A stretch of 64,000 nt of DNA from Promethearchaeota archaeon (GCA_019894975.1 JAGXNO010000006.1:1-64000); one strand, 5' to 3'; shown: positions 3,736 through 26,656, counted from the first letter of the stretch. The notes: a model not told the origin generated them from the letters alone. A program made the numbers and translations.

Positions 3736-5058
3736 TCACCCTTTAGGTTTCACAGGGTGTCCTTCCGGGATATACGGTTGGGCATATTTATTTACGATCT
3801 CAAAGAAATCTTTATCACTTACACCCTTAGTAACTTTCTTAAGTTCTTCCTTTATAATTTTGAAGGACTTCCTTAATTCTTCTTTTGAGGTTGTTTCGTG
3901 TTTTTGTTTAACTTCTGTTGAGATTTTTCTTATTATTTCGATAGGAATATCTAAATCTAGAACTTTTAGCTTCTCGTGTAAAGCGTGGGTCACAGATTTT
4001 GTCCCTGAAAATTTTCCCAAATAGAATTTTCTTCTTCTTCCTACCATACGGGGGTTTATTGGTTCATATGTTAGTGGATGAGCCAGAATTGCAGCAATAT
4101 GGAGTCCACTTTCATGGGAGAAGGCATAGTCTCCTACTATAGGTTTATATTGTGATAAAGGTTTACAGAAATATTTTTCACATTGTGCACTTAATTCAGG
4201 TAACTTTGTCAAATCTATTCCTGTTTTTATTCCTATCCTTTCCAATATTGTTGCTACTTCTTCTAAAGCCGCATTTCCCGCACGTTCGCCATACCCATTT
4301 ATACAGGTGTGAGGATATTTACAACCTTCTATAACTCCCGTTATTGTATTTGCTACTGCTAGTCCAAAATCATTATGAGTATGAATACCAATCGGGATAT
4401 TTTCTCTAAGAGGGGCAATTACTTCCTCTTTGATACGTTTAATCAAATATGAGGTTGATATAGGCGTTAAGATCCCAACAGTATCCCCCAAGACTACTCG
4501 TTCTGCTCCTGCTTTGATAGCTGTTTCAAAAACATTTTTTAAATGAACAAAGTCACATCTAGATCCATCTTCAGCAACCCAGTTAATTTTAAATCCATTA
4601 TCTTTAGCATAATGAAGTGCAGTTTCAATTTGATTTAATTGATGATCCGCATTTTGTTTTAATGTTTTTCTAAAGATAGGTGAGATGGGCATGAATATCA
4701 CAATTTCTTTAAGATCTGCGTCTATACATGCATCAATGTCATCTTTCCTCGGTCTGGCAATCCCTAAAATTGTAGATTTTTTAAAGTTTTCATTAACAAT
4801 AGCTTTTACTATTTTTTTTTCTGAATCTGAGACTGCTGGAAAACCTACGGCTATTAGTTTAACCCCAATCTCATCCATCATTTTTGCTAGATGTATTTTT
4901 TCATCGAGAGTTAAATAAACAGTGGGACTTTGTTCCCCATCTCGTAAAGTTTCGTCCCAGATCTCAATTGAATCGGGTAAATCATAGTTTTTTAATGCAA
5001 TCTCATTGTAGTCAATAAGGAGATCCCGAAGTTCCTCCTTTGAGAATTTGTAAGACAT
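3736..5058 (-). CDS. Homocitrate synthase / 2-isopropylmalate synthase family (DRE-TIM), no LeuA regulatory domain
   Basis: DETLRDGEQ, HTHNDFG, GYGERAGNA, HESGLH, YEP; 440 aa. Confidence 0.85.
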   Translation of the reverse strand: MSYKFSKEELRDLLIDYNEIALKNYDLPDSIEIWDETLRDGEQSPTVYLTLDEKIHLAKMMDEIGVKLIAVGFPAVSDSEKKIVKAIVNENFKKSTILGIARPRKDDIDACIDADLKEIVIFMPISPIFRKTLKQNADHQLNQIETALHYAKDNGFKINWVAEDGSRCDFVHLKNVFETAIKAGAERVVLGDTVGILTPISTSYLIKRIKEEVIAPLRENIPIGIHTHNDFGLAVANTITGVIEGCKYPHTCINGYGERAGNAALEEVATILERIGIKTGIDLTKLPELSAQCEKYFCKPLSQYKPIVGDYAFSHESGLHIAAILAHPLTYEPINPRMVGRRRKFYLGKFSGTKSVTHALHEKLKVLDLDIPIEIIRKISTEVKQKHETTSKEELRKSFKIIKEELKKVTKGVSDKDFFEIVNKYAQPYIPEGHPVKPKG

Positions 5059-5204
5059 AGTTTAATCCTTTTTATAATTAATGATAAATAAAATTATGGA
5101 ATACAAATAAATTTCATTTTTAGAAAAAGTATAAAATAGTTAAAAGATAACGTGGAGCCCAAACTTGTGAGTAAGAATTGAAAATCAAACAAAAAAGAAA
5201 AGAA

Positions 5205-5624
5205 TTATTTAATAACGTCTGTAATAAAACAGGTCTCTACAATTTTCACTCCTTTAATTTGTGAGATCTTCTCTTCTATTAAAGGGTTAAATTGTTCTAT
5301 TGAAGGGATTTCAACTTTCATAAATAAACCACAATCACCAGATAGTCTCCAGATATCAGTAATTTCTTCAATGTCTAATAATTCCTTCAAAATCCTTTTT
5401 ATCTCTTTAAAATCTGGTTCTAATTTCACGGTTGCCCTAGTACGAGGTTTATTATCAATTGCATAATCAATTGTGAATTTTCTGATCACACTTTCATTTG
5501 TTAATTTTTTTACTCGTCTTCTAACAGTTGCTTCAGTTTTGCCAACACTCAGAGAAATCTCATTAAAAGACATTCTACTATTATCTTTTAATAATTCTAA
5601 AATTTTCAAATCTACAATATCCAT
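5205..5624 (-). CDS. Lrp/AsnC family regulator (LysM-like)
   Basis: MD.VDLKILELLKDNSR.SF.EIS..VG.TEATVRRRVKKL HTH plus RAM domain; directly upstream of the homocitrate synthase-like gene. Confidence 0.85.
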   Translation of the reverse strand: MDIVDLKILELLKDNSRMSFNEISLSVGKTEATVRRRVKKLTNESVIRKFTIDYAIDNKPRTRATVKLEPDFKEIKRILKELLDIEEITDIWRLSGDCGLFMKVEIPSIEQFNPLIEEKISQIKGVKIVETCFITDVIK

Positions 5625-6005
5625 AATATCGAAATCACGAATTTTTTATATTCTTTTTATAAAAATAATTTCACTTTATTATTAAATATGATGATTATAT
5701 ATATAAAAACTTTAATTATATTCTCAAATTCACTAATTTTATAGCGAATTGAAAATACTATTGTCTGAAAATGGTTATCAATCTATTAATAAAGCTATTA
5801 ATCAATACAAAATCGGAAATTAATATCTTAGATTTGGTGCCTTTATGCGAAAAATAGTTTTTTTATCTCAAGCTGTTTCATAGGAAATTGATCAAAAATA
5901 ATTATAAAGTAAAAATTTTTAAGATGAAATAAATCATAATTTCGTTCAAATATTTAGACGTTAGCTTTAATAAAAAAAAAACTTTTTTATAGAGTTTATA
6001 TTAAA

Positions 6006-6578
6006 ATGATTAATATGGAAAAACTAACAAACAAAGAGTTTATAACACCTACAGTATTAATCGCCAGTGTTTACGCCGTTCTAGTATCTAATTTCTTTAT
6101 GATGGCTTATAGATCGGTACTCGATGCTAATTGGTCATTTTTTACAAACAATAATTCATTAGCTAATATATTAGCTCTTGCTTTTGTGCTATTTATTGTA
6201 ATACTTGTATTATCAATAAAATATACAGAGAAAATTGACAGTAAAATACTAATAACTATAATAATCATCATTACGGGTTTATGTGGATTTGTCGTTACCA
6301 CGTTTTGGACTTTGGAGTGGTTTATGCTTGGTTTTATAGTAGTTGCTTTATCGATTGCCTACCTTACCCCATGTTTATCTAAACTTTCAACTGAAATGGT
6401 GGGACCTGAACCTGAAAAAGATTATTATAAATTGATATTTCCTATTAGCATGATTTTATGGATCGGGATCTCAGTACTCATCTTTTATTTCATAGAGAAC
6501 GAATATGTATGGAGATTTTTTTACATAATTTCGGGTGTTCTTAATATCGCAGGATCATTTATGATTTACAATGTTTAA
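6006..6578 (+). CDS. Integral membrane protein, ~6 TM, resembling one half of an MFS transporter
   Basis: Six hydrophobic segments; terminal WRFFYIISG resembles the MFS TM6 motif. Confidence 0.55.
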   Translation: MINMEKLTNKEFITPTVLIASVYAVLVSNFFMMAYRSVLDANWSFFTNNNSLANILALAFVLFIVILVLSIKYTEKIDSKILITIIIIITGLCGFVVTTFWTLEWFMLGFIVVALSIAYLTPCLSKLSTEMVGPEPEKDYYKLIFPISMILWIGISVLIFYFIENEYVWRFFYIISGVLNIAGSFMIYNV

Positions 6579-6781
6579 TACGTTTGATAATTAATTTAGA
6601 TTTCAAAGTTAATACTAGGTCTAGGTCTGAAAAAAAATTTAGCTATAGGATTAGCTGATTTTTATATCTTCTCTATTTTTTAGTTGAATACTAATTGGTT
6701 TTAAATGATTAAATCGTATCAATAATATTATTAGAAATGTATTAATTCTTCATAATATATTCTATAGATAGAGTTAAAATA

Positions 6782-7582
6782 ATGTCAAAACAAATTCCTG
6801 AAAACGTTAAAGAGTCGTTGAGATCAATAGGTCTTACAGATTACGAAATCTCAATTTATCTCACTTTGATCTCAAAAGGTCCAATGGATGCCCGAGAACT
6901 ATCAGAAGCATCGGGAGTCCCTTATTCTCGTATATATAACATCCTCACTCAGCTGGAAAAGGATAAACTGTTTATAATAAAGGAGGAAGAGTCTCGTCCG
7001 TCTCGTTATTTTGCTAAATCACCAGATGAAGCTCTCATCATTGCAAAAAAACAATATAGTGATAGTTTTAATGAACATTCAGACAAAATTATTCATACTC
7101 TTACCCCGATATACCAATCTCATGATACCCCAATCAAGATCGCGCTATATGTTCATAGAGGTAGAGATGTTTGCATTAATAGAGCTTTATCATTAATAAA
7201 TTTAGCAAAAAATTCAATATACTTTACTTCAACAGAATTTGAATTACTAGAATTATTTTTTGATGATATTAAAAAAGCAAGAGCAAGGGGAGTTACTGAT
7301 ATTAAGCTCCTGGTTGACGCAAATGCTTTAGGAGACAAAAATTTTAAATCATTACTTAAGAAATATAATCAGCTCTGTGAAATTAAGTGGAGAGATCAGA
7401 TTTTTGGTAGTTCTGTTATCATTGATGAAGGTGAAGATGCGTTTATTATCCTTTCTGAAAGTTTCTTTCCAAAAAAAATGTCTTATTTTGGAATTGTAAC
7501 AGATCATGTCGCCTTTGGACCTTCTTCTTTATACTACTATGAATATCTGTATAAAAGCGCAAATGATGCAAAATTAGATTAG
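6782..7582 (+). CDS. TrmB family transcriptional regulator
   Basis: LRSIGLTDYEISIYLTL, ARELSEASGVPYSRIYNIL..L wHTH plus effector-binding domain. Confidence 0.9.
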   Translation: MSKQIPENVKESLRSIGLTDYEISIYLTLISKGPMDARELSEASGVPYSRIYNILTQLEKDKLFIIKEEESRPSRYFAKSPDEALIIAKKQYSDSFNEHSDKIIHTLTPIYQSHDTPIKIALYVHRGRDVCINRALSLINLAKNSIYFTSTEFELLELFFDDIKKARARGVTDIKLLVDANALGDKNFKSLLKKYNQLCEIKWRDQIFGSSVIIDEGEDAFIILSESFFPKKMSYFGIVTDHVAFGPSSLYYYEYLYKSANDAKLD

Positions 7583-7614
7583 TTTATCCAAACTCTCTCA
7601 ATTAAAGATAAGTC

Positions 7615-7869
7615 TTAAAATTTAATTGTAATTGCATTTTCAGGACATGCTTCGACACATTTAAAACAACGGGTGCATACCGAAGGCCAAATTGCTGTAA
7701 TTTTCCAATTCTGTGGATCATATATGTTCGCTTCTTTTTTTTTCAAATCTTCATGGCGTAAAAACACACAAGGATCACATACTTTTAGACATTTAGCACA
7801 TTCCCTGGGATCAACTTTTCCATCTGGTCCGCATTTTGAATAATCAATTTTAATTTTTGTCTTGCCCAT
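7615..7869 (-). CDS. 4Fe-4S ferredoxin
   Basis: CAKCLKVC and CTRCFKCVEACP; SD GGTGA 4 nt before the ATG. Confidence 0.85.
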   Translation of the reverse strand: MGKTKIKIDYSKCGPDGKVDPRECAKCLKVCDPCVFLRHEDLKKKEANIYDPQNWKITAIWPSVCTRCFKCVEACPENAITIKF

Positions 7870-13382: not shown

Positions 13383-13387
13383 GGTGA
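13383..13387 (+). promoter_or_regulatory. Shine-Dalgarno-like GGTGA overlapping the called GTG start of the E2 gene
   Basis: TAGGTGATTATCATTAGA; the same TAGGTGA precedes the ferredoxin ATG at 7869. Confidence 0.45.
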
Positions 13388-13902
13388 TTATCATTAGAGA
13401 AGAAACAGATTATACTGAAGCTATCGAATCATATAAAAACGAACCGTCGGTTATTTTAGAACCATGGGGTCGAAGTATTGATCACTTACGCTTAACCATC
13501 ATAGGTAAAAAAGGAACTCCTTATGCAGATGGCAAATTCATTTTTGAAATAAAATTTCCAGACAATTATCCATTCGCTCCCCCATATGCTTATGCTGTTA
13601 CCTTAATGTGGCATCCTAATATTGACAGTTCCATTCCACCTGGTAAGCTTAACATTTGTTTAGATTTAATTAATCCTGACCTGGTGGGTAAAGTTGATGC
13701 TAGCACCGGCGCATCTGGGTGGACTCCAAGTAAAACCTTAACTAATATAATCGAAGCTCTTAAGGGCATGATGTTTTACGAAGCTCCGTTTTTTAATCCA
13801 GGAGACCCCTTAAACCATGAGGCAGGAGAGCAGTATTTTCGAGCCTTGAAGAAGTTCGAAAGTAAAGCATCTGATTGGACTAAGAAGTATGCGATGGATT
13901 AG
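13384..13902 (+). CDS. Ubiquitin-conjugating enzyme E2 (catalytic Cys present)
   Basis: GTPYADGKFIFEIKFPDNYPFAPP, WHPNI, NICLDLI (Cys92), WTPS.TL, DPLNHEA. Confidence 0.93.
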   Translation: MIIIREETDYTEAIESYKNEPSVILEPWGRSIDHLRLTIIGKKGTPYADGKFIFEIKFPDNYPFAPPYAYAVTLMWHPNIDSSIPPGKLNICLDLINPDLVGKVDASTGASGWTPSKTLTNIIEALKGMMFYEAPFFNPGDPLNHEAGEQYFRALKKFESKASDWTKKYAMD

Positions 13903-15628: not shown

Positions 15629-17227
15629 CTACATAAACGCGATAACCACGTTATACTTTTTTATTTCTGATTCTGCTAATGCTGTTCCTAATGGGCTCAA
15701 AGTAATAACATCATTACTTTTTATTTTTAGAGCAGTCAGTTTTATATCTGGGTCTTTCAATGATGGCATATATGGATTCCAATAGATTTCCTTAGTCATT
15801 GGGTTTGTGATCATCCACAGTTCTGAATCTAGCTTATGTCCTGATATCTCCATTGCCTGAAATATGTAAGCTACATTTGCATCAAAAGGAACTACAATTT
15901 GAACATTTTCTTCTCCCTCTATTTTCCCACAAGCAAGGCAATCCTCTCTTTTTAGAATATTTAAGTGATCAAATTGACCATAAATACCATTATAATTGAC
16001 GTATGAAGGATCCATCGGAGCACCTATATTTCTTCCATTAACTCTAAATAGAAGTTTTAAGGCTTCCTGAGATTCAATGCTAGAGATAACAGAACTAACT
16101 GTTTGTATAGCTGCAATTTTATTCCCTAAAATATTTTCCATTTCCTCAAATTTATAATCTGGACCGAATGTTTCTCTTATGTTTTTCTTCCAATCTTCAA
16201 TTTGGTCATCAGTTAAAGTTTCTCGTTCTTCAATAGGAATGTTTTCATCAAATACTCTTTCTCTTAATTTTTCTAATTCAATTTGGGCTATTCCTTTTAA
16301 CTTAAGTACTTCATCATTTAAATTAAGATCCGGTTTATGTCCATATTTTTTTTCAAATTCCACTTCAGCCTTAATAACGCAATGATTTCTGTTGCGAGGT
16401 AGTCCTTTTAAAGTGCATGCAGCGACTAATTTATCATCAGCAGGAGGAATTGGAACCAAACACCTGTAGCAAGGCGTTTGATCTAAAATTTCAGGTGCAA
16501 ATTTCCAATCAAATACCATTTCAATTTCCTTTCTAATTTTGTTTACTATTGGATCCATTCTTGCACTCTTAATTCGATCAATTTCTTCTTCTAATAACTC
16601 AATTTCTCTTTGAGCTCTAAAATAATCAGGATATTCATTGTCTGATAACTCCCATAATCTTGCTTCTACTAAATTTTCGATTTCAATATCTTTTTTTTTA
16701 TATCTTAAGCCTGCACCTTCAGGAATTACGACTTGTACATGCCCTTCAAAACCAAGTGTTCCACCCTCAACCATGGGTTTTTTCATTCTAAGGCAAATTT
16801 TATTCAAATCTAATCTGGCGTTAAAATTGTCTAAAGCCGCGACAACTACATCTGATTCTTCATATACCGACATAGGTAACTTTTGGAGCTTTTCAAAGTA
16901 AAAATCGATATTTAAATAGGGATTCATTTCTTTTAATCGTTCTGCTGCAACTTCTGCTTTTGGACGTCCCTCATCTCCCGGGCGAAATAACATTTGGCGA
17001 GATAAATTAGAAGTTTCAATGGTATCAAGATCCACTAATATTAATTTGCCTATACCCATGAGAGCGAAATCTTTTGCAATCTCGCAACCTAATGCACCAA
17101 CACCAATAATCAATATACACCCTTTATCAACAACTTCCTGATCCCATCCATCAATCAGCTGTTGTCGAGCATACATACGTGCTTTAACAATATCTTCAAT
17201 CTTTTCGGTCATACTAAAAATCCTCAT
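15629..17227 (-). CDS. Ubiquitin-like activating enzyme E1 (ThiF fold, catalytic-Cys domain, C-terminal ubiquitin-fold domain)
   Basis: YARQ, GVGALGCE, DLDTIETSNLSRQMLF, LDN..AR, CYRC, ACTLKGLPRNRNHC, GNKIAAIQT, CLAC. Probable start ATG at 17212. Confidence 0.92.
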   Translation of the reverse strand: MRIFSMTEKIEDIVKARMYARQQLIDGWDQEVVDKGCILIIGVGALGCEIAKDFALMGIGKLILVDLDTIETSNLSRQMLFRPGDEGRPKAEVAAERLKEMNPYLNIDFYFEKLQKLPMSVYEESDVVVAALDNFNARLDLNKICLRMKKPMVEGGTLGFEGHVQVVIPEGAGLRYKKKDIEIENLVEARLWELSDNEYPDYFRAQREIELLEEEIDRIKSARMDPIVNKIRKEIEMVFDWKFAPEILDQTPCYRCLVPIPPADDKLVAACTLKGLPRNRNHCVIKAEVEFEKKYGHKPDLNLNDEVLKLKGIAQIELEKLRERVFDENIPIEERETLTDDQIEDWKKNIRETFGPDYKFEEMENILGNKIAAIQTVSSVISSIESQEALKLLFRVNGRNIGAPMDPSYVNYNGIYGQFDHLNILKREDCLACGKIEGEENVQIVVPFDANVAYIFQAMEISGHKLDSELWMITNPMTKEIYWNPYMPSLKDPDIKLTALKIKSNDVITLSPLGTALAESEIKKYNVVIAFM

Positions 17228-17349
17228 TTTATCTAAATATATTATTATAATTTAATCATCCAAATATAAACTCTTTCAGTTGTTTAATTAAAGTATAAGG
17301 AATCAGTAAAAATATAATATAATATAGAATAAGAGAAAAATCACAATTC

Positions 17350-20300
17350 TTATTTCTTCTTTTTTTTCTCAGCTTCTTTAATCATTCGTTTTAAGTTATC
17401 CACTTCTTCTCTTTCTTTAGCTTGTTGTAATTTTTCTTGAAAATCTTGTTTTTCTGATTCTTTTGAGCTTAATTCTTTAATAAGCTCTTCTTTTATTTCT
17501 ATCATGCCCCCCATTATTCGTCTAAATTCCTTTGCTTCATGTTTAATCTCATCCTTTTTTTGGAGTTCAGATACCTCTTGTTCTTTTCTTCTTTGTTCAA
17601 TTAAAATAATTACCTCATCGGCTAATCCACTCACTTCTCCAATTGTACCCTTTAATTGTTCATCCTCCTTTTCTCTACGATGCTTTTCTAATTCTCTTTG
17701 GTTATCGAGTTGTTCTTGAATAGTGTTAATTCTTGATTCCTCATTTTCAACCTTCTCTTCGAGGTTCTTAGTATTTTTTATTTCGGTCTCAATATATTTT
17801 ATTTCCTCCAGCCAACCAATTTCCTTAAAATTACTTATAGCTTTTTCAAAACTTTGAAAAGCCTTTTTAAAGTCATGATATGCAGCCCATTTTTTACCTT
17901 CATCGATTAATTTTAACCCTTCATCCTTAATTTCATCCATTCGTTGCCTGTTAATAACTAGCTCCCTATATTGTCTTTCTTGTTCTCTCCTTAGCTTTTC
18001 TTGCTCAAATCTTCTTGCTTTAACATCATCTTGGAAAATCTCATATTCCCTTTGTCTCTGAATTAATGCTTGTTCTTCTAACCGCTTCTTTTCTTGAAAA
18101 TTAATTTGTTCTTGCTGTAAATCTTTGATTAATGCGTTTAGATTATTTATTTCGGGCTCCCATCCAATATTTACGGCTAAAAGATTCCTGGCTTGATTAT
18201 ATAACGAAATAGCTTTATTATAGTCGGGATTTAATTGTTTCAAATATCTTCCTGCTTCTTCTAACATCGAATAAGCGGATTCTCGTATACTTGTTTGTTC
18301 TTGAATGGCTTTTTCTCTTTCTTGAAGGGCTAGTTGTTGGGCTTTTTTCTTTTCCCTCTCTTGTCTTTGTCTTTCTTCAATTAACAATTGTAAATCTTTT
18401 TCTTCTTGGATTTTTTCTAGCTCCCTTTGAAAATGCAATTCATGCATTTCTTCCTTTTGTTTCATTAAATGAGTTACTTTTGTTTTCATACTTCTTATTG
18501 AATCTGTTGGAAAATGCAATTCATTTAAAATTAATTCTGCTTTTCTATAATTTTCTATAGCCTTGGCATATTCAAGATTTTTTAAAAATTCCTCCGCTTT
18601 ATCTAATATCTTGAATGCATCTCGTTTCCTTATTTCAAGATTAGCTTTTAATTTTTCTATTTCTTCAAGCTGAACTTCCTTTGTTTGTAAACTTTCTGTT
18701 TCTCTTCTTAATTCTTCTGCAATGTTTTGTTGGAATTTCCATTCTTCCCTCTCTTTTTGTACTTTATTTTCTAACTCTTTCTGCATTTTTAATTCATGCT
18801 GTCTTTTCCTTTCTTGAACATTTTGAATCATCTCTCGAAGACTTTCAGTTGGAAAAGCTATTTCATTTAAAATAATTTCAGCAGAGCGATAACTTTCAAG
18901 TGATTTATCATATTGAGCTTGATTCATATATAACCCAGCCTTTTCAAGAAGGTCAAAAGCTTCATCTTTTCTTCTCTCCATGTATTCATAATACTTTCTT
19001 CGGTTTTCGAATTCTTTCTGTTTAGTTTTGGTCTTCAACTCATCTATTTGTATGCTCTCAACAATTTTTCTTTGGAACTGTAGTTCTCCCCGTTCATTCT
19101 GTAATTTATTCTCTAACTCTTTCTGTTGTGCTATAATTTCTTCTTTTCGTTTTTCTTGTATTTTACCTATCATTTCTTTAACTGCTCCTGTTGGAAATCC
19201 GATTTCATATAAAATTAGCTCTGCTTGACGATAGGTCTCGATTGCTTGCTCATATTCCCCCTTATTCAATACTATTTCAGCATTTTCCATTAATTTAAAC
19301 GCATCTGTCTTTTTAGTACCAAATAATTTTATTAAATCCTCACGCTTGTGAATTCGGATGTCTTTCTCTGTTAATCTCTTCTTTTCAGTTTGTAGTGATT
19401 CAAAAACTTTCTTCTGAAATCTTTCCTCTTCTTCCTTTTGCTTAAGCATTAATTGCTGTTTCAAATTCTCATTTTCTTCTAATTTCTTCTTCCTCTCTTG
19501 GATCGTTCTAATTGTTTCATTCACTAAATTTAAATAAGGACCAGTCCACCCAATTTCGGTTAAAATTTTAGTAGCTTCATTATATTTACTTAGAGCATTC
19601 TCAAAATTATTTTGTTTAAGTAAGATTTCTCCATCCTCCATAAATTTAAATGCTTCTTGCTGTTTTTTTGAAATTTGGGATGTTATTTCTTTTTGTTTTT
19701 CTACTGATTGAAATTCTTTCACAGCCATTGATTTTTCTTTTTCTTTCTGAAGGTTTATTTGCTCTATAAAAGCGTAATTAGCTTTTTCTTCTTCTATTGC
19801 TTTTTCTAACTCTTTTTGTTGAATAATTACTTTTTCTCTTTTTCTTCTCAAGATATCATTTATAGCTTCTTGAATTATCGGGATCTCATCAATCCATTGT
19901 ATTTGAGCAAAAATATTAGCAATATCGTTATACAACTTGAGTGCGTCATCATATTTTCCTTGCGATAGGAGATCTTGAGCTTGGTCTAATATATTAAAAG
20001 CAAATTCCTTTCTTTCTTCACGGAATGCAATTTCTTCTTCCTTTTTTCTAAGTGTAATTTGTCTTTGCTTGAATTGCTCCCGTTGATTAGAAGTTTCAAT
20101 TGCAATCTGAGTTTGAAAAACTTTTTCGAGTTTTTCTTGTTTTAAAATCTCCTCCACTTCTCTTTGTTTATTTAATTCAGCTTCACGTTTTTTATCTTGA
20201 ACAATCCTGATTGAATTTTGAATTAATTTTATCTCATCATCCCAATGAATTTCTGTAAAAATACTTGATGCCTTCTGATACAATTCAATTGCTTTATCAA

Positions 20301-23300
20301 AATCATTTCTAGAGATACTTCTTTGTGCTTCTTCCAATAAATTAAATGCTTTCTTTTCTTTTTCTTCGAGGATTATCCTAATATCTTCCTGTTTTCTTAG
20401 CTTTGCTTGTTTTTCTCTCATTTTTTCTTGTTCATATTTTACTTTTTCAGAAATCAGTTGCTGAAACCTTAAATCCTCCTGTTCTTTTCTAAATCCTAAT
20501 TCCAATTCTTTTGATCTATTTATTTCTCTTTCTCTTCTTTTTTCTTGGATTTTTTGAATCATTTCTTTAATTAAATCAGTTGGATAGCCAATTTCATTTA
20601 AAATTAATTCTGCTTGTCTATAATTTTCTATTGATTTGTCGTAAAGCCCATGATTTAGTGAATTTTCTGCATTATCCATTATTTTAAAAGCCTCAGATTT
20701 ACGCGTTTCAGCAAAATTTATCATTTCTTCACGTTTTAGAATTTGTATTTGCTTTTCTTTAATCCTATTTTGTTCTGTTTTTAGATAATGCGAAATTTTA
20801 TTCTGAAATTGCTCTTCTTCTTTTTGAAGGGTTAGTTTTGATTCAAATTCAACTTGCTTTACCTTTTCCTCTTCTATCATTTTGTTTTGTATTGTAGAAA
20901 GTGTTTCACTCAGCAATTTTAAATAACCTGATCCCCAACCAATCTCTTTTAGAACATCTATTGCTTTTTGGTAATTTTTTATAGCTTCTTCATATCTATA
21001 GACTTGAACTAAGTTTTCTCCCCCCTCCATTAATTTAAAAGCTTCTTCTTGTTTAGCCAAATTCTGAGTCGATAATAATTTTTGCTCTTCTATCATTTCT
21101 ACATCTCTTAAAACCTCTTGTTTTTCTCTTTCTCTCTGATGCTTTATTTTTTCAATAAAAGTCTTATCATCAACTTCTTTTTTAATTGCTTTTTGTAATT
21201 GTTTTTGTTTAAGAATTAACTCATTCCTCCTCTTTTCCTCAATATCTTGGATTGCTCCTTTCAATAAGAGAATCTCATCCTTCCATTGAATTTGGGCAAA
21301 AATATTTAAAACTTCATAATATATCTCAAGTACGGAGTCGTAATCATTAAGAACTACTAATTTTTGTGCCTCCTCTAGCAACTCAAATGCCTCTTCCTTT
21401 TTCTTTTCTCGGTATGCGATTTCTTTTTCTTTTTCTCTAATTATTAACTCTTTTTTCTTTAGCTTCTCCTGGCGGGTCTTAATTTCAGAAGCTACTAGAT
21501 CTTGAAATCGTTTTTCTTGCTTCTCTCTTTCAAACACTGATTGTATTCTGATTTGTTCCTGTAGAGCAGCTTCTCTTTTTTTATTTTCGATTTCTATTAT
21601 AGAGCTCTGAATCAAATTAATTTCATTTTGCCATTGAGCCTCCGCAAAGAAATTTGTAGCATAATGAAGAATTTCAATAGCTTCATCAAAGTTTCCATTG
21701 TACATTTCACTTTGAGCTTCTTCAAGCAATTTAAATCCTGCTTCTCTTCTTTCTTCACGATATTTTAATTCTTCCTCACGGTCTTTTAAGGCAATATTCC
21801 GGGTTTTAATTTTCTCACGTTCTTGTTTTAAATAATGACTTATCTGTTTCTGGAATGTTTCTTCTTCTTTTTCTTTAGTTATCATTTCCTGCATTCTTTT
21901 TTGTTTCAGAAGATTCTGACTTCTTTGTAGCTCTTCAACTTTTAATACAGCATTTTCAATTAAAGGTATTTCGTCCTTCCATTGAATTTCTGCAAATAAA
22001 TTTGCAGTAGTTTGATAAGCCTGTAAAGCATTATTATAATCTCCTTGATTAATATATTTAATTGCAGAATCTAATGATTCAAAAGCCTCATTCTTTCGTT
22101 GTTCCAAATAAAAAATTTCTTTCTCTTTATCTTTTAAAACAATTTCTTTTTGCTTTAATTGTTTACGTTGCTTATCTAATTGAGTTGCTATTTGTTTTTG
22201 GAATTCGAGTTCTTCTTTTTCTCTATTTTCTAGTTTCTGTTGAATATCGTATGTTTTCTTAAGTTGGGAATTTTTAATTTTTTGTACATTTGAAATAGTA
22301 TTATTAATGTTAGAAGCATAGATTTCCCAACCAGACCCCAATTCCTTTATATAATTTAGAGCTTTTTCATATTCATTGATTGCTTCTTCGAATTTTCTTG
22401 ATTGTAAATTATTATCAGCTTGACTTAGTATCATAAAAAATTCTTTTTCCTTTTTAACCTTACTTTCTCTCTCTTCTTCAAACTGTCGTTTCCGAGTTTC
22501 TAACTCTAAATTTGTGTACTGAATTTCTTCTTTTTGCTTCTTATATATTGAATTTTGTAGAATAGTAAGATCTTTCTCCCTCTTTACTTTCAATTTTTCT
22601 GATTTTTCCTCTTCTTTGAGTTTTGTGTTTACATCTTCTATTAAATTTATAACCGGGCGAATATAAGAGTCCCATTCAATTGATTTAAATAATTCAACTG
22701 CAAGTTCAAAATGTTGTATTGCTTGATTATAATTTTTGTCTCTTTCAGATTTCTTTCCTAGATCTATTAATCTGAAAGCCCTTGCTTGAATTTCTTCTTC
22801 TCTTTTCTTCTTCTCTTCAAATTCAATTAATCTTTCTTTTTGCACTTCTGATTTATCTAGTACGGAATCTCTCTCAGTTCTGCTTAAAACATCCACACTA
22901 GCTTGTTTTTGTTGTAGTTGGAACTTTTCAAATTGATCCTTATCTCTCCTAAGCTTTTCAATGATGATTTTAATGTTTTGGGTTTGGTCATCCCAGCCTA
23001 TTGAATTTAATAACTCTATGGCCCTTTCATAATTCAATATTGCTTTATCAAATTTCCTTTCATTTTCAAATACTTTTGCTTTGTCGATATGAGAAAATGC
23101 GTGATTTTGAGTTTCTTCTTCCTGATTTTTCCTAGAACGATATCGAGCAATCGATTCAGCTTTTTCTTTAGTTGCAATTTCACCAAACATCCCAACAACT
23201 CCAGGTTTTTTATCATCCATTTTTTGAAGAAATTCTTCAGGAGGAGTTAATTCTTGTTGTTGTCGTTGAGAAATTGCTTGTTCTTTCTTTAAGGTATTAG

Positions 23301-23712
23301 AAAGATCTTTAATTTTTAATTTTAAGTTTTCTAACTGAGTTTCAGACCAGCCAGATTGATTTAATAAACTAATAGCAGACAAATATTGTTGAACAGCATC
23401 TTCAAAAAACCCATCAGACTCCAATTTTTTTGCTCCTTCTAATAGAGCAAATGCTTGCTCTTGAAGTTGCACAGATTGAGTCTTCATTTGAGTTTGTTCA
23501 TATAATTTCTCCTGTTTCAAGAAACCCTTTAATTCTTCTACTCTTTCATAAATCTCATCAATTCTATGCATCAAATATCCGCTTTGTTTGAGATATTCTG
23601 CAGCGATCTGGTAATTCGAAATTGCTTCTTCAGCATTTTTTTCTGCTTCAAACTTTTGTGCATTTTCTAAATATTTTAAAGCTTCTTGAGCTAAATCTTC
23701 TGGATTTTCCAT
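17350..23712 (-). CDS. Giant 2120-aa protein of 18 MIT/TPR-like helical repeats joined by E/K/Q/R-rich helices
   Basis: AFxLLExA..x(Y/F)DxAIExYxxAxxI(F/L)xEIxW recurs about every 115-120 aa. Confidence 0.85.
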   Translation of the reverse strand: MENPEDLAQEALKYLENAQKFEAEKNAEEAISNYQIAAEYLKQSGYLMHRIDEIYERVEELKGFLKQEKLYEQTQMKTQSVQLQEQAFALLEGAKKLESDGFFEDAVQQYLSAISLLNQSGWSETQLENLKLKIKDLSNTLKKEQAISQRQQQELTPPEEFLQKMDDKKPGVVGMFGEIATKEKAESIARYRSRKNQEEETQNHAFSHIDKAKVFENERKFDKAILNYERAIELLNSIGWDDQTQNIKIIIEKLRRDKDQFEKFQLQQKQASVDVLSRTERDSVLDKSEVQKERLIEFEEKKKREEEIQARAFRLIDLGKKSERDKNYNQAIQHFELAVELFKSIEWDSYIRPVINLIEDVNTKLKEEEKSEKLKVKREKDLTILQNSIYKKQKEEIQYTNLELETRKRQFEEERESKVKKEKEFFMILSQADNNLQSRKFEEAINEYEKALNYIKELGSGWEIYASNINNTISNVQKIKNSQLKKTYDIQQKLENREKEELEFQKQIATQLDKQRKQLKQKEIVLKDKEKEIFYLEQRKNEAFESLDSAIKYINQGDYNNALQAYQTTANLFAEIQWKDEIPLIENAVLKVEELQRSQNLLKQKRMQEMITKEKEEETFQKQISHYLKQEREKIKTRNIALKDREEELKYREERREAGFKLLEEAQSEMYNGNFDEAIEILHYATNFFAEAQWQNEINLIQSSIIEIENKKREAALQEQIRIQSVFEREKQEKRFQDLVASEIKTRQEKLKKKELIIREKEKEIAYREKKKEEAFELLEEAQKLVVLNDYDSVLEIYYEVLNIFAQIQWKDEILLLKGAIQDIEEKRRNELILKQKQLQKAIKKEVDDKTFIEKIKHQREREKQEVLRDVEMIEEQKLLSTQNLAKQEEAFKLMEGGENLVQVYRYEEAIKNYQKAIDVLKEIGWGSGYLKLLSETLSTIQNKMIEEEKVKQVEFESKLTLQKEEEQFQNKISHYLKTEQNRIKEKQIQILKREEMINFAETRKSEAFKIMDNAENSLNHGLYDKSIENYRQAELILNEIGYPTDLIKEMIQKIQEKRREREINRSKELELGFRKEQEDLRFQQLISEKVKYEQEKMREKQAKLRKQEDIRIILEEKEKKAFNLLEEAQRSISRNDFDKAIELYQKASSIFTEIHWDDEIKLIQNSIRIVQDKKREAELNKQREVEEILKQEKLEKVFQTQIAIETSNQREQFKQRQITLRKKEEEIAFREERKEFAFNILDQAQDLLSQGKYDDALKLYNDIANIFAQIQWIDEIPIIQEAINDILRRKREKVIIQQKELEKAIEEEKANYAFIEQINLQKEKEKSMAVKEFQSVEKQKEITSQISKKQQEAFKFMEDGEILLKQNNFENALSKYNEATKILTEIGWTGPYLNLVNETIRTIQERKKKLEENENLKQQLMLKQKEEEERFQKKVFESLQTEKKRLTEKDIRIHKREDLIKLFGTKKTDAFKLMENAEIVLNKGEYEQAIETYRQAELILYEIGFPTGAVKEMIGKIQEKRKEEIIAQQKELENKLQNERGELQFQRKIVESIQIDELKTKTKQKEFENRRKYYEYMERRKDEAFDLLEKAGLYMNQAQYDKSLESYRSAEIILNEIAFPTESLREMIQNVQERKRQHELKMQKELENKVQKEREEWKFQQNIAEELRRETESLQTKEVQLEEIEKLKANLEIRKRDAFKILDKAEEFLKNLEYAKAIENYRKAELILNELHFPTDSIRSMKTKVTHLMKQKEEMHELHFQRELEKIQEEKDLQLLIEERQRQEREKKKAQQLALQEREKAIQEQTSIRESAYSMLEEAGRYLKQLNPDYNKAISLYNQARNLLAVNIGWEPEINNLNALIKDLQQEQINFQEKKRLEEQALIQRQREYEIFQDDVKARRFEQEKLRREQERQYRELVINRQRMDEIKDEGLKLIDEGKKWAAYHDFKKAFQSFEKAISNFKEIGWLEEIKYIETEIKNTKNLEEKVENEESRINTIQEQLDNQRELEKHRREKEDEQLKGTIGEVSGLADEVIILIEQRRKEQEVSELQKKDEIKHEAKEFRRIMGGMIEIKEELIKELSSKESEKQDFQEKLQQAKEREEVDNLKRMIKEAEKKKKK

Positions 23713-23917: not shown

Positions 23918-25876
23918 ATGGATTTAAAAAATAAAAACATCATCATTAATTTTGAGCCAATTTCAAGAAGGATATTATTATCGAGTGATAAACCATTATA
24001 TGATATCCTTTCAGAAATAAGTGTTCCAATCAGATCTGTATGTGGTGGTTTAGGTACTTGTGGGAAATGTAAGTTATTAATTCAAAAAGGTAAGGAGTTT
24101 TTTATTCCCCCAACCAGCATTGAAAAAAAATCTATAGATCAGAGTGAATTAGAATACGGTTGGCGTTTAGCATGTCAAGCAAAAATAGATGCAATAAAAT
24201 GTAACCTTCTAGAAAAAACAGAATCGTTAAAAATTAGGATTTTTTTACCGAATGAATTACTATTAGAAGATTTTAAAATCCTCACTGGTGGTATGGGCAA
24301 GGGTGTAAAAAGGTTTCCTGCAATAAAGAAATATTATTTAAGTCTTGACAAACCTTCACTAGAAAATCCTCAAGCTGATTTTGAAAGAACTGTTGAGAAG
24401 TTAAAAAACTCTAGTAAGGATTTTAGTAATAATGCTCAATTTGACATTCATTTTGATTTATTAAAAGAATTACCAAATATCTTAAGAAATAATAAAAATA
24501 AGATAACTCTTGCAATACGGAATAATAAAACTATAATTGCATGCGAACCTGCTAACACAGTTGAAGATAATTTTGGAATCGCTTATGATATTGGAACAAC
24601 AACAATAGTAGGTTACTTAATAAACCTAAATAATGGAAAGATTTATGCTGTAGCATCTAATTTAAACAGTCAAACTGCTTATGGGGAAGACGTCATTACA
24701 AGAATAACTTTCATAAAAGATGATAAAGAAAACCTCAATGTCTTGAATTCTGCTGTTGTAAATGATCTAAATGATATTCTACTTAAATTATGCTCTAAAG
24801 CTAATGTTGATCCCTCTCGAGTGTATGAAGCCAGTATTGTGGGGAATTCTGTTATGCATCACATATTTTTGGGTTTAGATCCAACGAATATTGGTTTAAG
24901 TCCCTATGTTCCTGTAATTCAAAAAGGATTAGACATACCCAGTAAAAAATTGAATCTTAATATATCTAAGAACGGAGTTGCCTATATTGCTCCCGTTATA
25001 TCTGGATTTGTTGGAGCTGATACAATCGGAGTTATTCTTTCCTCAAAAATATATAATGAAAAAGATCTCACATTAGCAATTGATATTGGAACTAATGGTG
25101 AGATCATTATCGGAAACCGTAAGGTTCTAGCCGTTGGTTCATGCGCTGCTGGTTCTGCATTAGAGGGAGCTCATATCAGTAATGGGATGAGAGCTGCTGG
25201 GGGTGCAATCGATTCGCTAAAAATTAATCCTAAAACTCTTGATGTAACCTTCTCAACTATAATAGATAAAAAACCTATAGGTATATGTGGATCTGGTCTT
25301 GTAGATGCTGTAGCTGAGATGCTAAAATCTAAAATTCTCACGAGGAGTGGAAATTTTAATAAAGAACTTATTAACCATGAGAGAATAAAAAAAATTGGTA
25401 AAACTTATGAATTTGTTATAGCTAAAAAGGAAGAAACTTCCTTAGGAAAAGAGATCACTATAACTCAAAATGATATCAGACAAATTCAAATGGCAAAAGC
25501 AGCATTCTATTCTGGTACTCGACTTATATTGAAATCCTTGGGTAATAACAACCGTAAAATCAAACAGATATTTTTAGCTGGAGCCTTTGGGAATTATATA
25601 AATGCTAAAAACGCCAAATTTATTGGAATGATTCCGGATATTCCAGATGAAAAAATATATCAAATTGGTAATGCCGCGGGAATTGGTGCACAATATTGCT
25701 TATTAAATGTAAAATTAAGAAATAAAGCAGAACAATTGCTAAAGAAAACTAGCTATATTGAAATTGCAATTAAAAAAGAATTTCAAAAGGAATATGCTGA
25801 AGCCATGTATTTTCCTCATCTTAATCTTGACTATTTTCCTACATTGGTAGAATATAGAAATATTCGAAAAAGATAG
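23918..25876 (+). CDS. ATP-dependent corrinoid reductive activase (RACo/AcsV, ASKHA family) with N-terminal 2Fe-2S domain
   Basis: CGGLGTCGKC, RLACQ, DIGTTT, GEDVITRI, DIGTNGEI, GICGSG, LAGAFGNYI, GNAAG.GA. Confidence 0.9.
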   Translation: MDLKNKNIIINFEPISRRILLSSDKPLYDILSEISVPIRSVCGGLGTCGKCKLLIQKGKEFFIPPTSIEKKSIDQSELEYGWRLACQAKIDAIKCNLLEKTESLKIRIFLPNELLLEDFKILTGGMGKGVKRFPAIKKYYLSLDKPSLENPQADFERTVEKLKNSSKDFSNNAQFDIHFDLLKELPNILRNNKNKITLAIRNNKTIIACEPANTVEDNFGIAYDIGTTTIVGYLINLNNGKIYAVASNLNSQTAYGEDVITRITFIKDDKENLNVLNSAVVNDLNDILLKLCSKANVDPSRVYEASIVGNSVMHHIFLGLDPTNIGLSPYVPVIQKGLDIPSKKLNLNISKNGVAYIAPVISGFVGADTIGVILSSKIYNEKDLTLAIDIGTNGEIIIGNRKVLAVGSCAAGSALEGAHISNGMRAAGGAIDSLKINPKTLDVTFSTIIDKKPIGICGSGLVDAVAEMLKSKILTRSGNFNKELINHERIKKIGKTYEFVIAKKEETSLGKEITITQNDIRQIQMAKAAFYSGTRLILKSLGNNNRKIKQIFLAGAFGNYINAKNAKFIGMIPDIPDEKIYQIGNAAGIGAQYCLLNVKLRNKAEQLLKKTSYIEIAIKKEFQKEYAEAMYFPHLNLDYFPTLVEYRNIRKR

Positions 25877-26128: not shown

Positions 26129-26656
26129 GTGTCAAGTTTTAAACTGAAAGTACTATTAACTGGCGCGGCTGCCGTGGGAAAAACCAGTCTCGTTCAGCGA
26201 TTTATACGTAACCGTTTCCAAGCAAACTACAAATTAACAGTAGGGGTTGATATCCTCACTAAAGATGTTGAATTTAGATCTGGTGAAATAGCAACGCTTT
26301 CTATATGGGATATTGGAGGACAGCAACGATTTGAATTTATACGGAGTACATTTTACAAAGGAGCAGCTGGGGCGCTCTTGGTGTTTGATTTAACGAGAGA
26401 ACAAACGTATACAGAGATCAGGAAATGGTTGACCGAAATACGTCAGTTTGCGGGAGAAAATATACCATTTGTGTTAATCGGTAATAAGGCAGATTTAGTG
26501 GAGGACGTTGGTGTAGTAATCGATAGAGATGAGGCTAGAGCATTTGCAGAAAATGAAGGGAGTATTTATATTGAATCTTCTGCTAAAACAGGAATAAATG
26601 TCGATGAAGCCTTTACAGAATTAACCCGTCGAATAATAGATTCAAGAATGCAGTAA
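26129..26656 (+). CDS. Rab-like small GTPase
   Basis: GAAAVGKT, TVGVD, WDIGGQQRF, FYKGA, LVFDLT, NKAD, SAKT; SD AGGAGTGA upstream; no C-terminal Cys motif. Confidence 0.93.
   Translation: MSSFKLKVLLTGAAAVGKTSLVQRFIRNRFQANYKLTVGVDILTKDVEFRSGEIATLSIWDIGGQQRFEFIRSTFYKGAAGALLVFDLTREQTYTEIRKWLTEIRQFAGENIPFVLIGNKADLVEDVGVVIDRDEARAFAENEGSIYIESSAKTGINVDEAFTELTRRIIDSRMQ

Follow-up and report, generated by a model that had tools for sequence, protein, structure and literature searches.

A 2120-residue protein of 18 MIT-like bundles joined by predicted continuous helices in a Promethearchaeota archaeon

Introduction

In eukaryotes and archaea, enzymes are brought to ESCRT-III polymers by MIT domains, adaptors that bind the MIM helices of ESCRT-III in an H2/H3 or H1/H3 groove. 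The family (PF04212) includes Vps4/CdvC, NRBF2/Atg38, MITD1, katanin p60 and spartin, and tandem copies occur in calpain-7, ULK3 and Vta1. These proteins hold one or two MIT domains, each an asymmetric three-helix bundle of about 70 residues, together with an effector (AAA ATPase, protease or kinase), and to our knowledge no protein carries more than two. Here we describe a gene, in a 64,000-nucleotide (nt) stretch of DNA from a Promethearchaeota archaeon (GCA_019894975.1, JAGXNO010000006.1:1-64000; the whole stretch is called the window), whose product resembles the MIT proteins in its bundles but differs in having 18 of them and no effector. A further difference is that, between two consecutive bundles, about 45-50 additional residues in helical form are predicted to join helix 3 of the one to helix 1 of the other.

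A first-pass annotation of the window had proposed that this protein is a long multivalent scaffold or ruler coupling ubiquitin-like modification to ESCRT-III or cytoskeletal polymers. In our analysis the repeat structure was confirmed, the idea of a ruler fitted the data, and the two proposed couplings did not gain support.

Repeat structure of the giant protein

The open reading frame is a single frame of 2120 amino acids (aa), and its start codon is backed by 59 orthologues sharing the opening MxNPExLAQEAL. The product has a mass of 254.8 kDa and an isoelectric point of 5.65, and contains 14 Pro and no Cys. A motif scan counted 16 units, two were added by eye and by string search, and a hidden Markov model built from the units detected all 18, which bears out the number given in the first-pass annotation. 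The claimed lack of transmembrane segments and enzymatic motifs was confirmed as well: the maximum Kyte-Doolittle value of a 19-mer was 1.18, and the Pfam scan of the protein gave no enzymatic domain and no RING or UBA-type domain. A RING-type E3 rod is thus ruled out for this Cys-free protein. The parts of the gene are as follows.

17350..23712, minus strand: whole gene, encoding the 2120-aa all-helical, Cys-free protein with 18 MIT-like units.
23275..23691, minus strand: units 1-2 (residues 8-146), spaced by 76 aa; in sequence, unit 1 comes closest to the Vps4 MIT domain.
23110..23277, minus strand: non-helical linker between units 2 and 3 (residues 146-201), with a conserved KPxVVGMFG; among the few indel sites.
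21748..23109, minus strand: units 3-6 (residues 202-655), corresponding 1:1 to those of the 14-, 16- and 20-unit forms; mapping to the 25-unit form is less clear.
20359..21747, minus strand: units 7-10 (residues 656-1118), first copy of a four-unit super-repeat and the modelled segment.
21070..21099, minus strand: predicted hinge (residues 872-881) in the linker after unit 8, with pLDDT below 50 and conserved sequence.
18970..20358, minus strand: units 11-14 (residues 1119-1581), second copy of the super-repeat.
17740..18969, minus strand: units 15-18 (residues 1582-1991), 1:1 counterparts of the final four units in the forms with 14, 16 and 20 units; with the 25-unit form, clear mapping is restricted to the final three.
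17353..17739, minus strand: C-terminal helical domain of about 130 aa with an amphipathic polybasic tail (..DNLKRMIKEAEKKKKK).
17362..22401, minus strand: indel-free span (residues 438-2117) in the alignment of 61 orthologues with 49-83% identity.

The first nine units start at residues 8, 84, 202, 309, 422, 539, 656, 772 and 888, and the last nine at residues 1005, 1119, 1235, 1351, 1468, 1582, 1696, 1810 and 1929. The period is 107-119 aa from the third unit on. The stretches between units are 45-57 residues long, except that only 14 residues separate units 1 and 2. Units 7-10 are 41-46% identical to units 11-14 when compared unit for unit, against 15-30% for most other unit pairs; by sequence comparison, the two groups are a duplication of a four-unit block.

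The linker at residues 146-201, the sole clearly non-helical and indel-tolerant one, contains the KPxVVGMFG motif. F176 and G177 are invariant across 59 orthologues, and this conserved sequence is a candidate short linear motif.

The units resemble MIT domains

When the whole protein was compared with Pfam, MIT was the best family (89.8 bits, E = 1.2e-25), followed by TPR families (TPR_2, 55.2 bits, E = 3.5e-15; TPR_1, E = 7.6e-10). In single scans, 9 of the 18 units matched MIT at E below 0.01, and 5 of the 18 matched TPR_2. The first-pass annotation had likened unit 1 to Vps4-type MIT domains, and phmmer against all PDB sequences agreed with this: the matches were exclusively MIT, including Sulfolobus Vps4/CdvC (2w2u, E = 3.8e-4) and human VPS4A. 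The unit profile matched designed consensus TPR proteins via the common GDYxxAIxxYxxA motif, and among natural single-domain chains it matched the Sulfolobus and human Vps4 MIT domains.

The AlphaFold2 model of unit 7, based on 70 sequences, had a predicted local distance difference test score (pLDDT) of 91 and a predicted template modelling score (pTM) of 0.76, with helices at residues 2-24, 28-44 and 48-76. It is an asymmetric antiparallel three-helix bundle of about 70-80 residues. MIT domains led the Foldseek results for this model, with NRBF2 (4zey) at TMq 0.77-0.78 and a root-mean-square deviation (rmsd) of 1.4-1.7 Å, and the archaeal (Sulfolobus) CdvC MIT domain 2w2u at TMq 0.68 and 1.8 Å; the Foldseek E-values were weak, which is usual with small helical domains. 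Re-alignment by VIA placed the NRBF2 MIT domain first (Z = 11.6, 2.7 Å, 73 aligned residues) and gave Z = 11.1 for the yeast Vps4 MIT domain (1.9 Å, 71 aligned residues). Thus in the fold comparison of this unit, of the kind that the first-pass annotation had suggested as a check, MIT leads both lists, and TPR fragments are close behind in that of VIA. We call the units MIT-like because each bundle stands alone, and the sequence matches and the models together support their description as MIT-like isolated three-helix bundles.

Predicted architecture of consecutive units

Residues 648-1128, comprising units 7-10, were modelled by AlphaFold2 with 60 orthologues, resulting in a pLDDT of 83 and a pTM of 0.30, the latter taken as expected for an elongated object. 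The helices of this four-unit model are at 48-140, 164-229, 281-373 and 399-480. Within each unit helix 1 has about 23 and helix 2 has 17 residues, and helix 3, the connector and helix 1 of the next unit are predicted as one continuous helix of about 93 residues. The pLDDT of the connectors is about 80-90, and their helix continues without tertiary contacts in the monomer model. The sole helix break is at model residues 225-234 (residues 872-881 of the protein), in the S/T/Q-containing connector after unit 8, and a second hinge is predicted, by analogy of sequence, after unit 12, where the connector is of similar character.

No unit-unit packing was found in the four-unit model, and Foldseek against the PDB returned nothing for it at E up to 0.001. 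TPR solenoids fit the model only at rmsd of 50-60 Å, whereas MIT domains fit locally at 2-3 Å. The first-pass annotation had named packing as an ordinary TPR solenoid as part of the result that would speak against it; what the model has is isolated bundles with no stacking. The protein is therefore predicted to be a segmented rod with knobs, neither a flexible string nor a solenoid. Helix geometry, as distinct from the model coordinates, would give about 11 nm per module and about 0.2 µm overall.

This architecture is similar to that of spectrin, alpha-actinin and dystrophin in that the final helix of a repeat is continuous with the first helix of the following one (helices 48-140, 281-373 and 399-480 of the model), in the repeat size (about 106 aa in spectrin and about 116 aa here), and in forming a long rod with super-repeats. 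In contrast, helices in spectrin span about 30 residues and are completely packed, whereas the bundle helices here have 17-25 residues and the 45-50 connector residues are unpacked in the model. Sequence similarity to spectrin is absent, and no Spectrin family was among the Pfam matches of the protein at E up to 0.1.

Connectors are conserved and fixed in length

The connectors are composed of 19.6% E, 16.0% K, 12.8% Q, 8.4% R and 2.7% D, with 0.3% Pro and 0.7% Gly, and are about 47% charged and about 25% hydrophobic (range, 22-30%). Fourier power at 3.5 residues was weak, and no canonical coiled-coil signal of heptad periodicity was found in them. In the whole-module alignment, the Phe of a mid-connector ExxFQxxI/V motif is present in at least 90% of the aligned units, about as conserved as the core Phe of helix 1, and column identity among 60 orthologues was 0.65-0.70 in the connectors and 0.65-0.81 in the bundles. 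Because the connectors carry conserved positions, the real repeat is the whole module of about 116 aa.

The first-pass annotation had regarded the connectors as ER/K spacer helices. Similarly to the ER/K helices of myosin VI, myosin X and caldesmon, they are long helices, poor in Pro and Gly and rich in E, K, R and Q, which may set a distance; in the monomer model they stand alone. On the other hand, they are not plain ER/K helices, considering the hydrophobic content, the limited fraction of charged residues and the position-specific conservation that includes the near-invariant ExxFQxxI.

The 18-unit form is limited to one genus, and 60 orthologues of that genus (49-83% identical) aligned over 481 columns with zero gaps. 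In the full-length alignment of 61 sequences, indels were confined to the stretch ahead of residue 1, the linkers 145-163 and 242-287, position 437 and the last three residues, and the 1,680 residues from 438 to 2117 contained none. Since the non-helical N-terminal linkers tolerate indels and the helical span has none, this indicates selection on length and helical register. The N-terminal linkers served as the internal control for this comparison; the E1 orthologues were unsuitable as an indel control, being 79-91% identical within the genus. This result is in accordance with the proposal of a ruler or spacer, as the connectors act as length-constrained helices.

Length classes and distribution

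A protein search gave 199 relatives, and all of those with an organism name were Loki-type Asgard metagenome-assembled genomes (MAGs). Their lengths fall in sharp classes of 14, 16, 18, 20 and 25 units, and between genera the repeat length stays within 113-119 aa in every class, the usual values being 114, 116 and 117. Units 1-7 (1-8 in two forms) and the last four units map 1:1 in the forms with 14, 16 and 20 units, while in the 25-unit form clear mapping was obtained only for the first three and last three units. Central A/A/B/C blocks vary in number, the 14-unit form being the 18-unit form minus one block, and the C-terminal region of about 130 residues is conserved throughout the length classes.

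The last approximately 19 residues (17353-17410, minus strand) follow the pattern [DE]x[IL]x[KR]M[IL][KR][DE]A..K.KK, which is kept in all forms from 14 to 25 units. A 1165-aa relative of the sister family described below shares this amphipathic polybasic tail, which may be a membrane-binding or MIM-like element. Scores of an ESM-Atlas feature search with the C-terminal 136 residues were 0.81 or lower and uninformative.

A scan of 301 genomes of the phylum gave strong matches in 62 of 68 genomes of the archaeon's own GTDB family and weak matches only in 6 of 7 genomes of a sister family in the same order; in all other families searched the count was 0 of about 225 genomes.

Shift of length by whole modules or blocks, specialised ends and a four-unit super-repeat are features reminiscent of nebulin, titin and the golgins. 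However, there is no homology to these proteins, and a ruled filament or vesicle tethering is without evidence for the present one.

A length-defined rod and its possible self-assembly

The reading that we favour, with a rough probability of 0.55, is a rod of defined length that has specialised ends and acts as a multivalent scaffold or spacer. The protein would be a non-enzymatic, rigid cytoplasmic rod of 18 MIT-like bundles joined by continuous helices. Its N-terminal end would be specialised by the tandem MIT-like pair and the VVGMFG motif, its C-terminal end by the conserved helical domain and the polybasic amphipathic tail, and the centre would consist of spacer blocks, variable in number. 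The evenly spaced knobs and the exposed ExxFQxxI motifs would dock helical motifs, whether these belong to partner proteins or to further rod molecules.

Several results weigh against a rod of MIT-like modules. The best single unit scored 24.4 bits, compared with the Pfam gathering score of 30 bits for MIT, and none of the 18 units reached this cut-off. TPR fragments such as those of LGN and CHIP come next to the MIT domains in the VIA list at Z of 9.6-10.2, lower by 1-2 Z units, an ESM-Atlas shape search returned TPR-type segments of larger proteins, and the modelled fold alone cannot separate the units from 1.5 TPR repeats. The rod shape is taken from monomer AlphaFold2 predictions with pTM of 0.30, the five models ranging from pLDDT 69 to 83. 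Furthermore, connectors with about 25% hydrophobic residues are atypical of stable single helices and may need a partner strand.

This property of the connectors, which are too hydrophobic for a classical ER/K helix, also speaks for a self-assembling cytoskeletal element, in which the ExxFQxxI helix would dock into the MIT-like grooves or connectors of neighbouring molecules to make two-stranded rods, bundles or a lattice, much as super-repeats of spectrin or nebulin form long elements. The conserved Phe and, in addition, a sparse hydrophobic stripe are located on an otherwise exposed helix, the zero-indel rule would suit an exact register between molecules, and both the four-unit super-repeat and the spectrin-like continuation of helix C into helix A of the next repeat are consistent with such an assembly. 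However, coherent heptad periodicity is lacking, and the protein has no Pfam match to spectrin or intermediate filaments. We regard self-assembly as rather unlikely. A more specific version, which we consider a long shot, is that the modules are self-complementary, each with an MIT-like receptor and a MIM-like ExxFQxxI, and zip the rods in register into a two-stranded filament or lattice. If true, this would be a new Loki-type Asgard cytoskeletal polymer built on the MIT-MIM recognition principle, with its length in quanta of four-unit blocks and anchored by the C-terminal polybasic tail.

Gene neighbourhood and the proposed coupling to E1 and ESCRT-III

The genes close to the giant gene are listed below.

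17228..17349, minus strand: 122-nt AT-rich spacer between the giant gene and the E1 gene; on a reading of the sequence only, a T-rich run follows the giant-gene stop codon and TATA-like runs precede the E1 start.
15629..17227, minus strand: ThiF/E1-like gene, 532 aa (Pfam, 4.5e-58), with family-level synteny.
13384..13902, plus strand: E2 gene (UQ_con, 2e-25), part of the same syntenic block.
23918..25876, plus strand: RACo gene, divergent from the giant gene; a neighbour conserved as well as E1 and functionally unrelated.
26129..26656, plus strand: 175-aa Ras-like GTPase gene, with an orthologue also beside the poly-MIT gene of the sister family.

Beyond RACo on the same side are the genes for the 175-aa Ras-like GTPase, aspartate kinase, a PHP protein and a 550-aa Arf-like GTPase, and further out on the E1 side are the genes for a ferredoxin-like protein, the E2 and a histone deacetylase. 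The E1 gene is therefore directly beside the giant gene, downstream on the same strand, as the first-pass annotation had stated. From this position and the MIT-like units it had proposed a multivalent MIT scaffold that binds the MIM tails of ESCRT-III and couples them to E1/E2 ubiquitin-like conjugation. The units are indeed MIT-like, unit 1 matches only Vps4-type MIT domains in the PDB, and the 217-aa ESCRT-III protein of this genome appears, as read from its sequence, to end in an amphipathic MIM1-like helix.

Synteny was read in five other loci of the family, one each with 14, 16, 18, 20 and 25 units. The recurrent order is aspartate kinase, Ras-like GTPase, giant gene, E1 and HAD hydrolase; E1 is beside or near the giant gene in all five, RACo is upstream in four, and an E2 gene is within about 9 kb in four. 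In addition, at least eight further genomes of the genus have the giant gene and E1 on a common contig and strand, a few kb apart. The adjacency is thus conserved, and this part of the synteny check was positive, but the conservation is within one GTDB family only, and the adjacency of RACo and aspartate kinase, which have no conceivable link to the rod, is equally conserved. In three of the five loci, those of the 16-, 20- and 25-unit lineages, the giant gene and E1 are separated by an oppositely oriented S8 peptidase gene (18809-20290, 17011-18522 and 15697-17247 in the respective loci), which excludes an obligatory operon of the two. The T-rich and TATA-like runs that are read in the 122-nt spacer of the window also weaken the case for a functional link. 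The sister family was read in three genomes, where the E1 orthologue (48-51% identity) and the poly-MIT relative are on different contigs or 30 kb apart, so that the check was negative there.

The ESCRT-III gene (C131:102247-102897), the only Snf7-family gene of the genome at E below 0.01, is on a different contig from the giant gene. The only clear Vps4_C match is on yet another (C153:93643-93768, minus strand), within a frame of 211 aa that lies about 0.5 kb from the end of the contig; the Vps4 gene may be cut there, and contig boundaries probably divide the ESCRT cluster of this MAG. A complex prediction for units 1-4 with the C-terminal 68 residues of ESCRT-III scored 0.10 against a mark of 0.32, which speaks neither way. 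Moreover, the rod has no Cys and no RING or UBA-type domain. Accordingly, the coupling to ubiquitin-like modification is not supported, and that to ESCRT-III finds no support in the gene context; we consider the joint model quite unlikely. The position beside E1 is a family-level gene order with no demonstrated coupling.

Two observations concern this block. IS605 OrfB/TnpB-like genes are located inside it in two of the peptidase-bearing lineages. Six E1 orthologue matches in the genus contain one in-frame stop, and three of the six span about 10 more codons than the query; different starts or a small 5′ insertion may be behind this.

The adjacent GTPase gene was considered from the same viewpoint. 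In the sister family the poly-MIT gene (1165 aa, about seven units, with the same C-terminal tail) is 0.4-5 kb from an orthologue of the 175-aa GTPase gene (64-72% identity); the distance is thus short in both families, although the other neighbours differ. A second poly-MIT gene of the genome, described below, is also about 1.5 kb from a Ras-like GTPase gene. Together with the conserved polybasic amphipathic C-terminus, this would fit a golgin-like tether or effector platform for the Ras/Rab-like GTPase, anchored by the tail and with GTPase sites along the rod. However, the genome has about 70 Ras-family genes, by which adjacency by chance is estimated at roughly 0.2 per locus, and no membrane-targeting domain was recognised in the protein. 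The GTPase link is a lead only, and we regard the tether as very doubtful. As to an ordinary TPR solenoid serving as a generic protein-protein interaction array, the TPR matches of the whole protein, of the unit profile and in ESM-Atlas notwithstanding, it is extremely improbable, for the motifs are 107-119 aa apart, not 34, and the modelled bundles sit isolated on long helices.

Novelty and significance

In the literature, no publication describing a poly-MIT protein or this family was found, and a 2024 ESCRT survey (PMC11188069) mentions no poly-MIT protein. The rod family appears undescribed.

An indel-intolerant rod of 18 knobs that would measure 0.2 µm is encoded in nearly all searched genomes of one Loki-type family, with distant relatives order-wide. 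The family bears on how MIT-type recognition diversified before eukaryogenesis, on how protrusion-bearing archaeal cells measure or bridge distances of 100 nm and more, and on whether a connection of small GTPases or ubiquitin-like systems to scaffolds of this kind already existed. It may also be a natural design for a rigid protein ruler with addressable sites.

Wider relatives

The profile of the 116-aa module, searched against 1.84 billion representatives, gave 874 protein matches with E no higher than 0.001, among them 77 with E no higher than 1e-30, and many of the proteins have 8-25 modules. Ten of the matches were looked up, and every named one was from Promethearchaeota or Lokiarchaeota. 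The cultured Promethearchaeum syntrophicum has a 2547-aa hypothetical relative with N-terminal Pfam matches to DUF4904 and Bc2l-C_N. Apart from these two, the Pfam search for effector domains in four distant poly-unit relatives gave TPR families only. In a search of sequencing runs, the stretch was found only in DNA contigs of sediment, permafrost and subsurface metagenomes, and no RNA run was listed.

A second poly-MIT gene of the archaeon's own genome (C87:176333-181246, minus strand) encodes a divergent protein of 1633 aa, in which 7-9 units can be recognised. Together with the wider relatives, this second protein makes rods of MIT-like modules a recurring feature of Loki-type archaea. One unit of the 1633-aa protein scored 31.3 bits against Pfam MIT, the best single match of the genome, and its gene is about 0.6 kb from a proteasome alpha-like gene, as judged by eye.

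The MIT search of the archaeon's own genome also gave two 457-aa paralogues, 44% identical, which are encoded at C153:79673-81043 (minus strand) and C5:2292-3662 (minus strand); they have an N-terminal Cys cluster and C-terminal MIT/TPR-like units, and were rejected as Vps4 from their sequence.

The 1165-aa relative of the sister family (4155-7652, plus strand, in one genome) has about seven MIT-like units. In its N-terminal half, S/T/Q/P-rich linkers, which are probably disordered, take the place of helical connectors, and YKP(T/S)F..T.Q.DY motifs are repeated.

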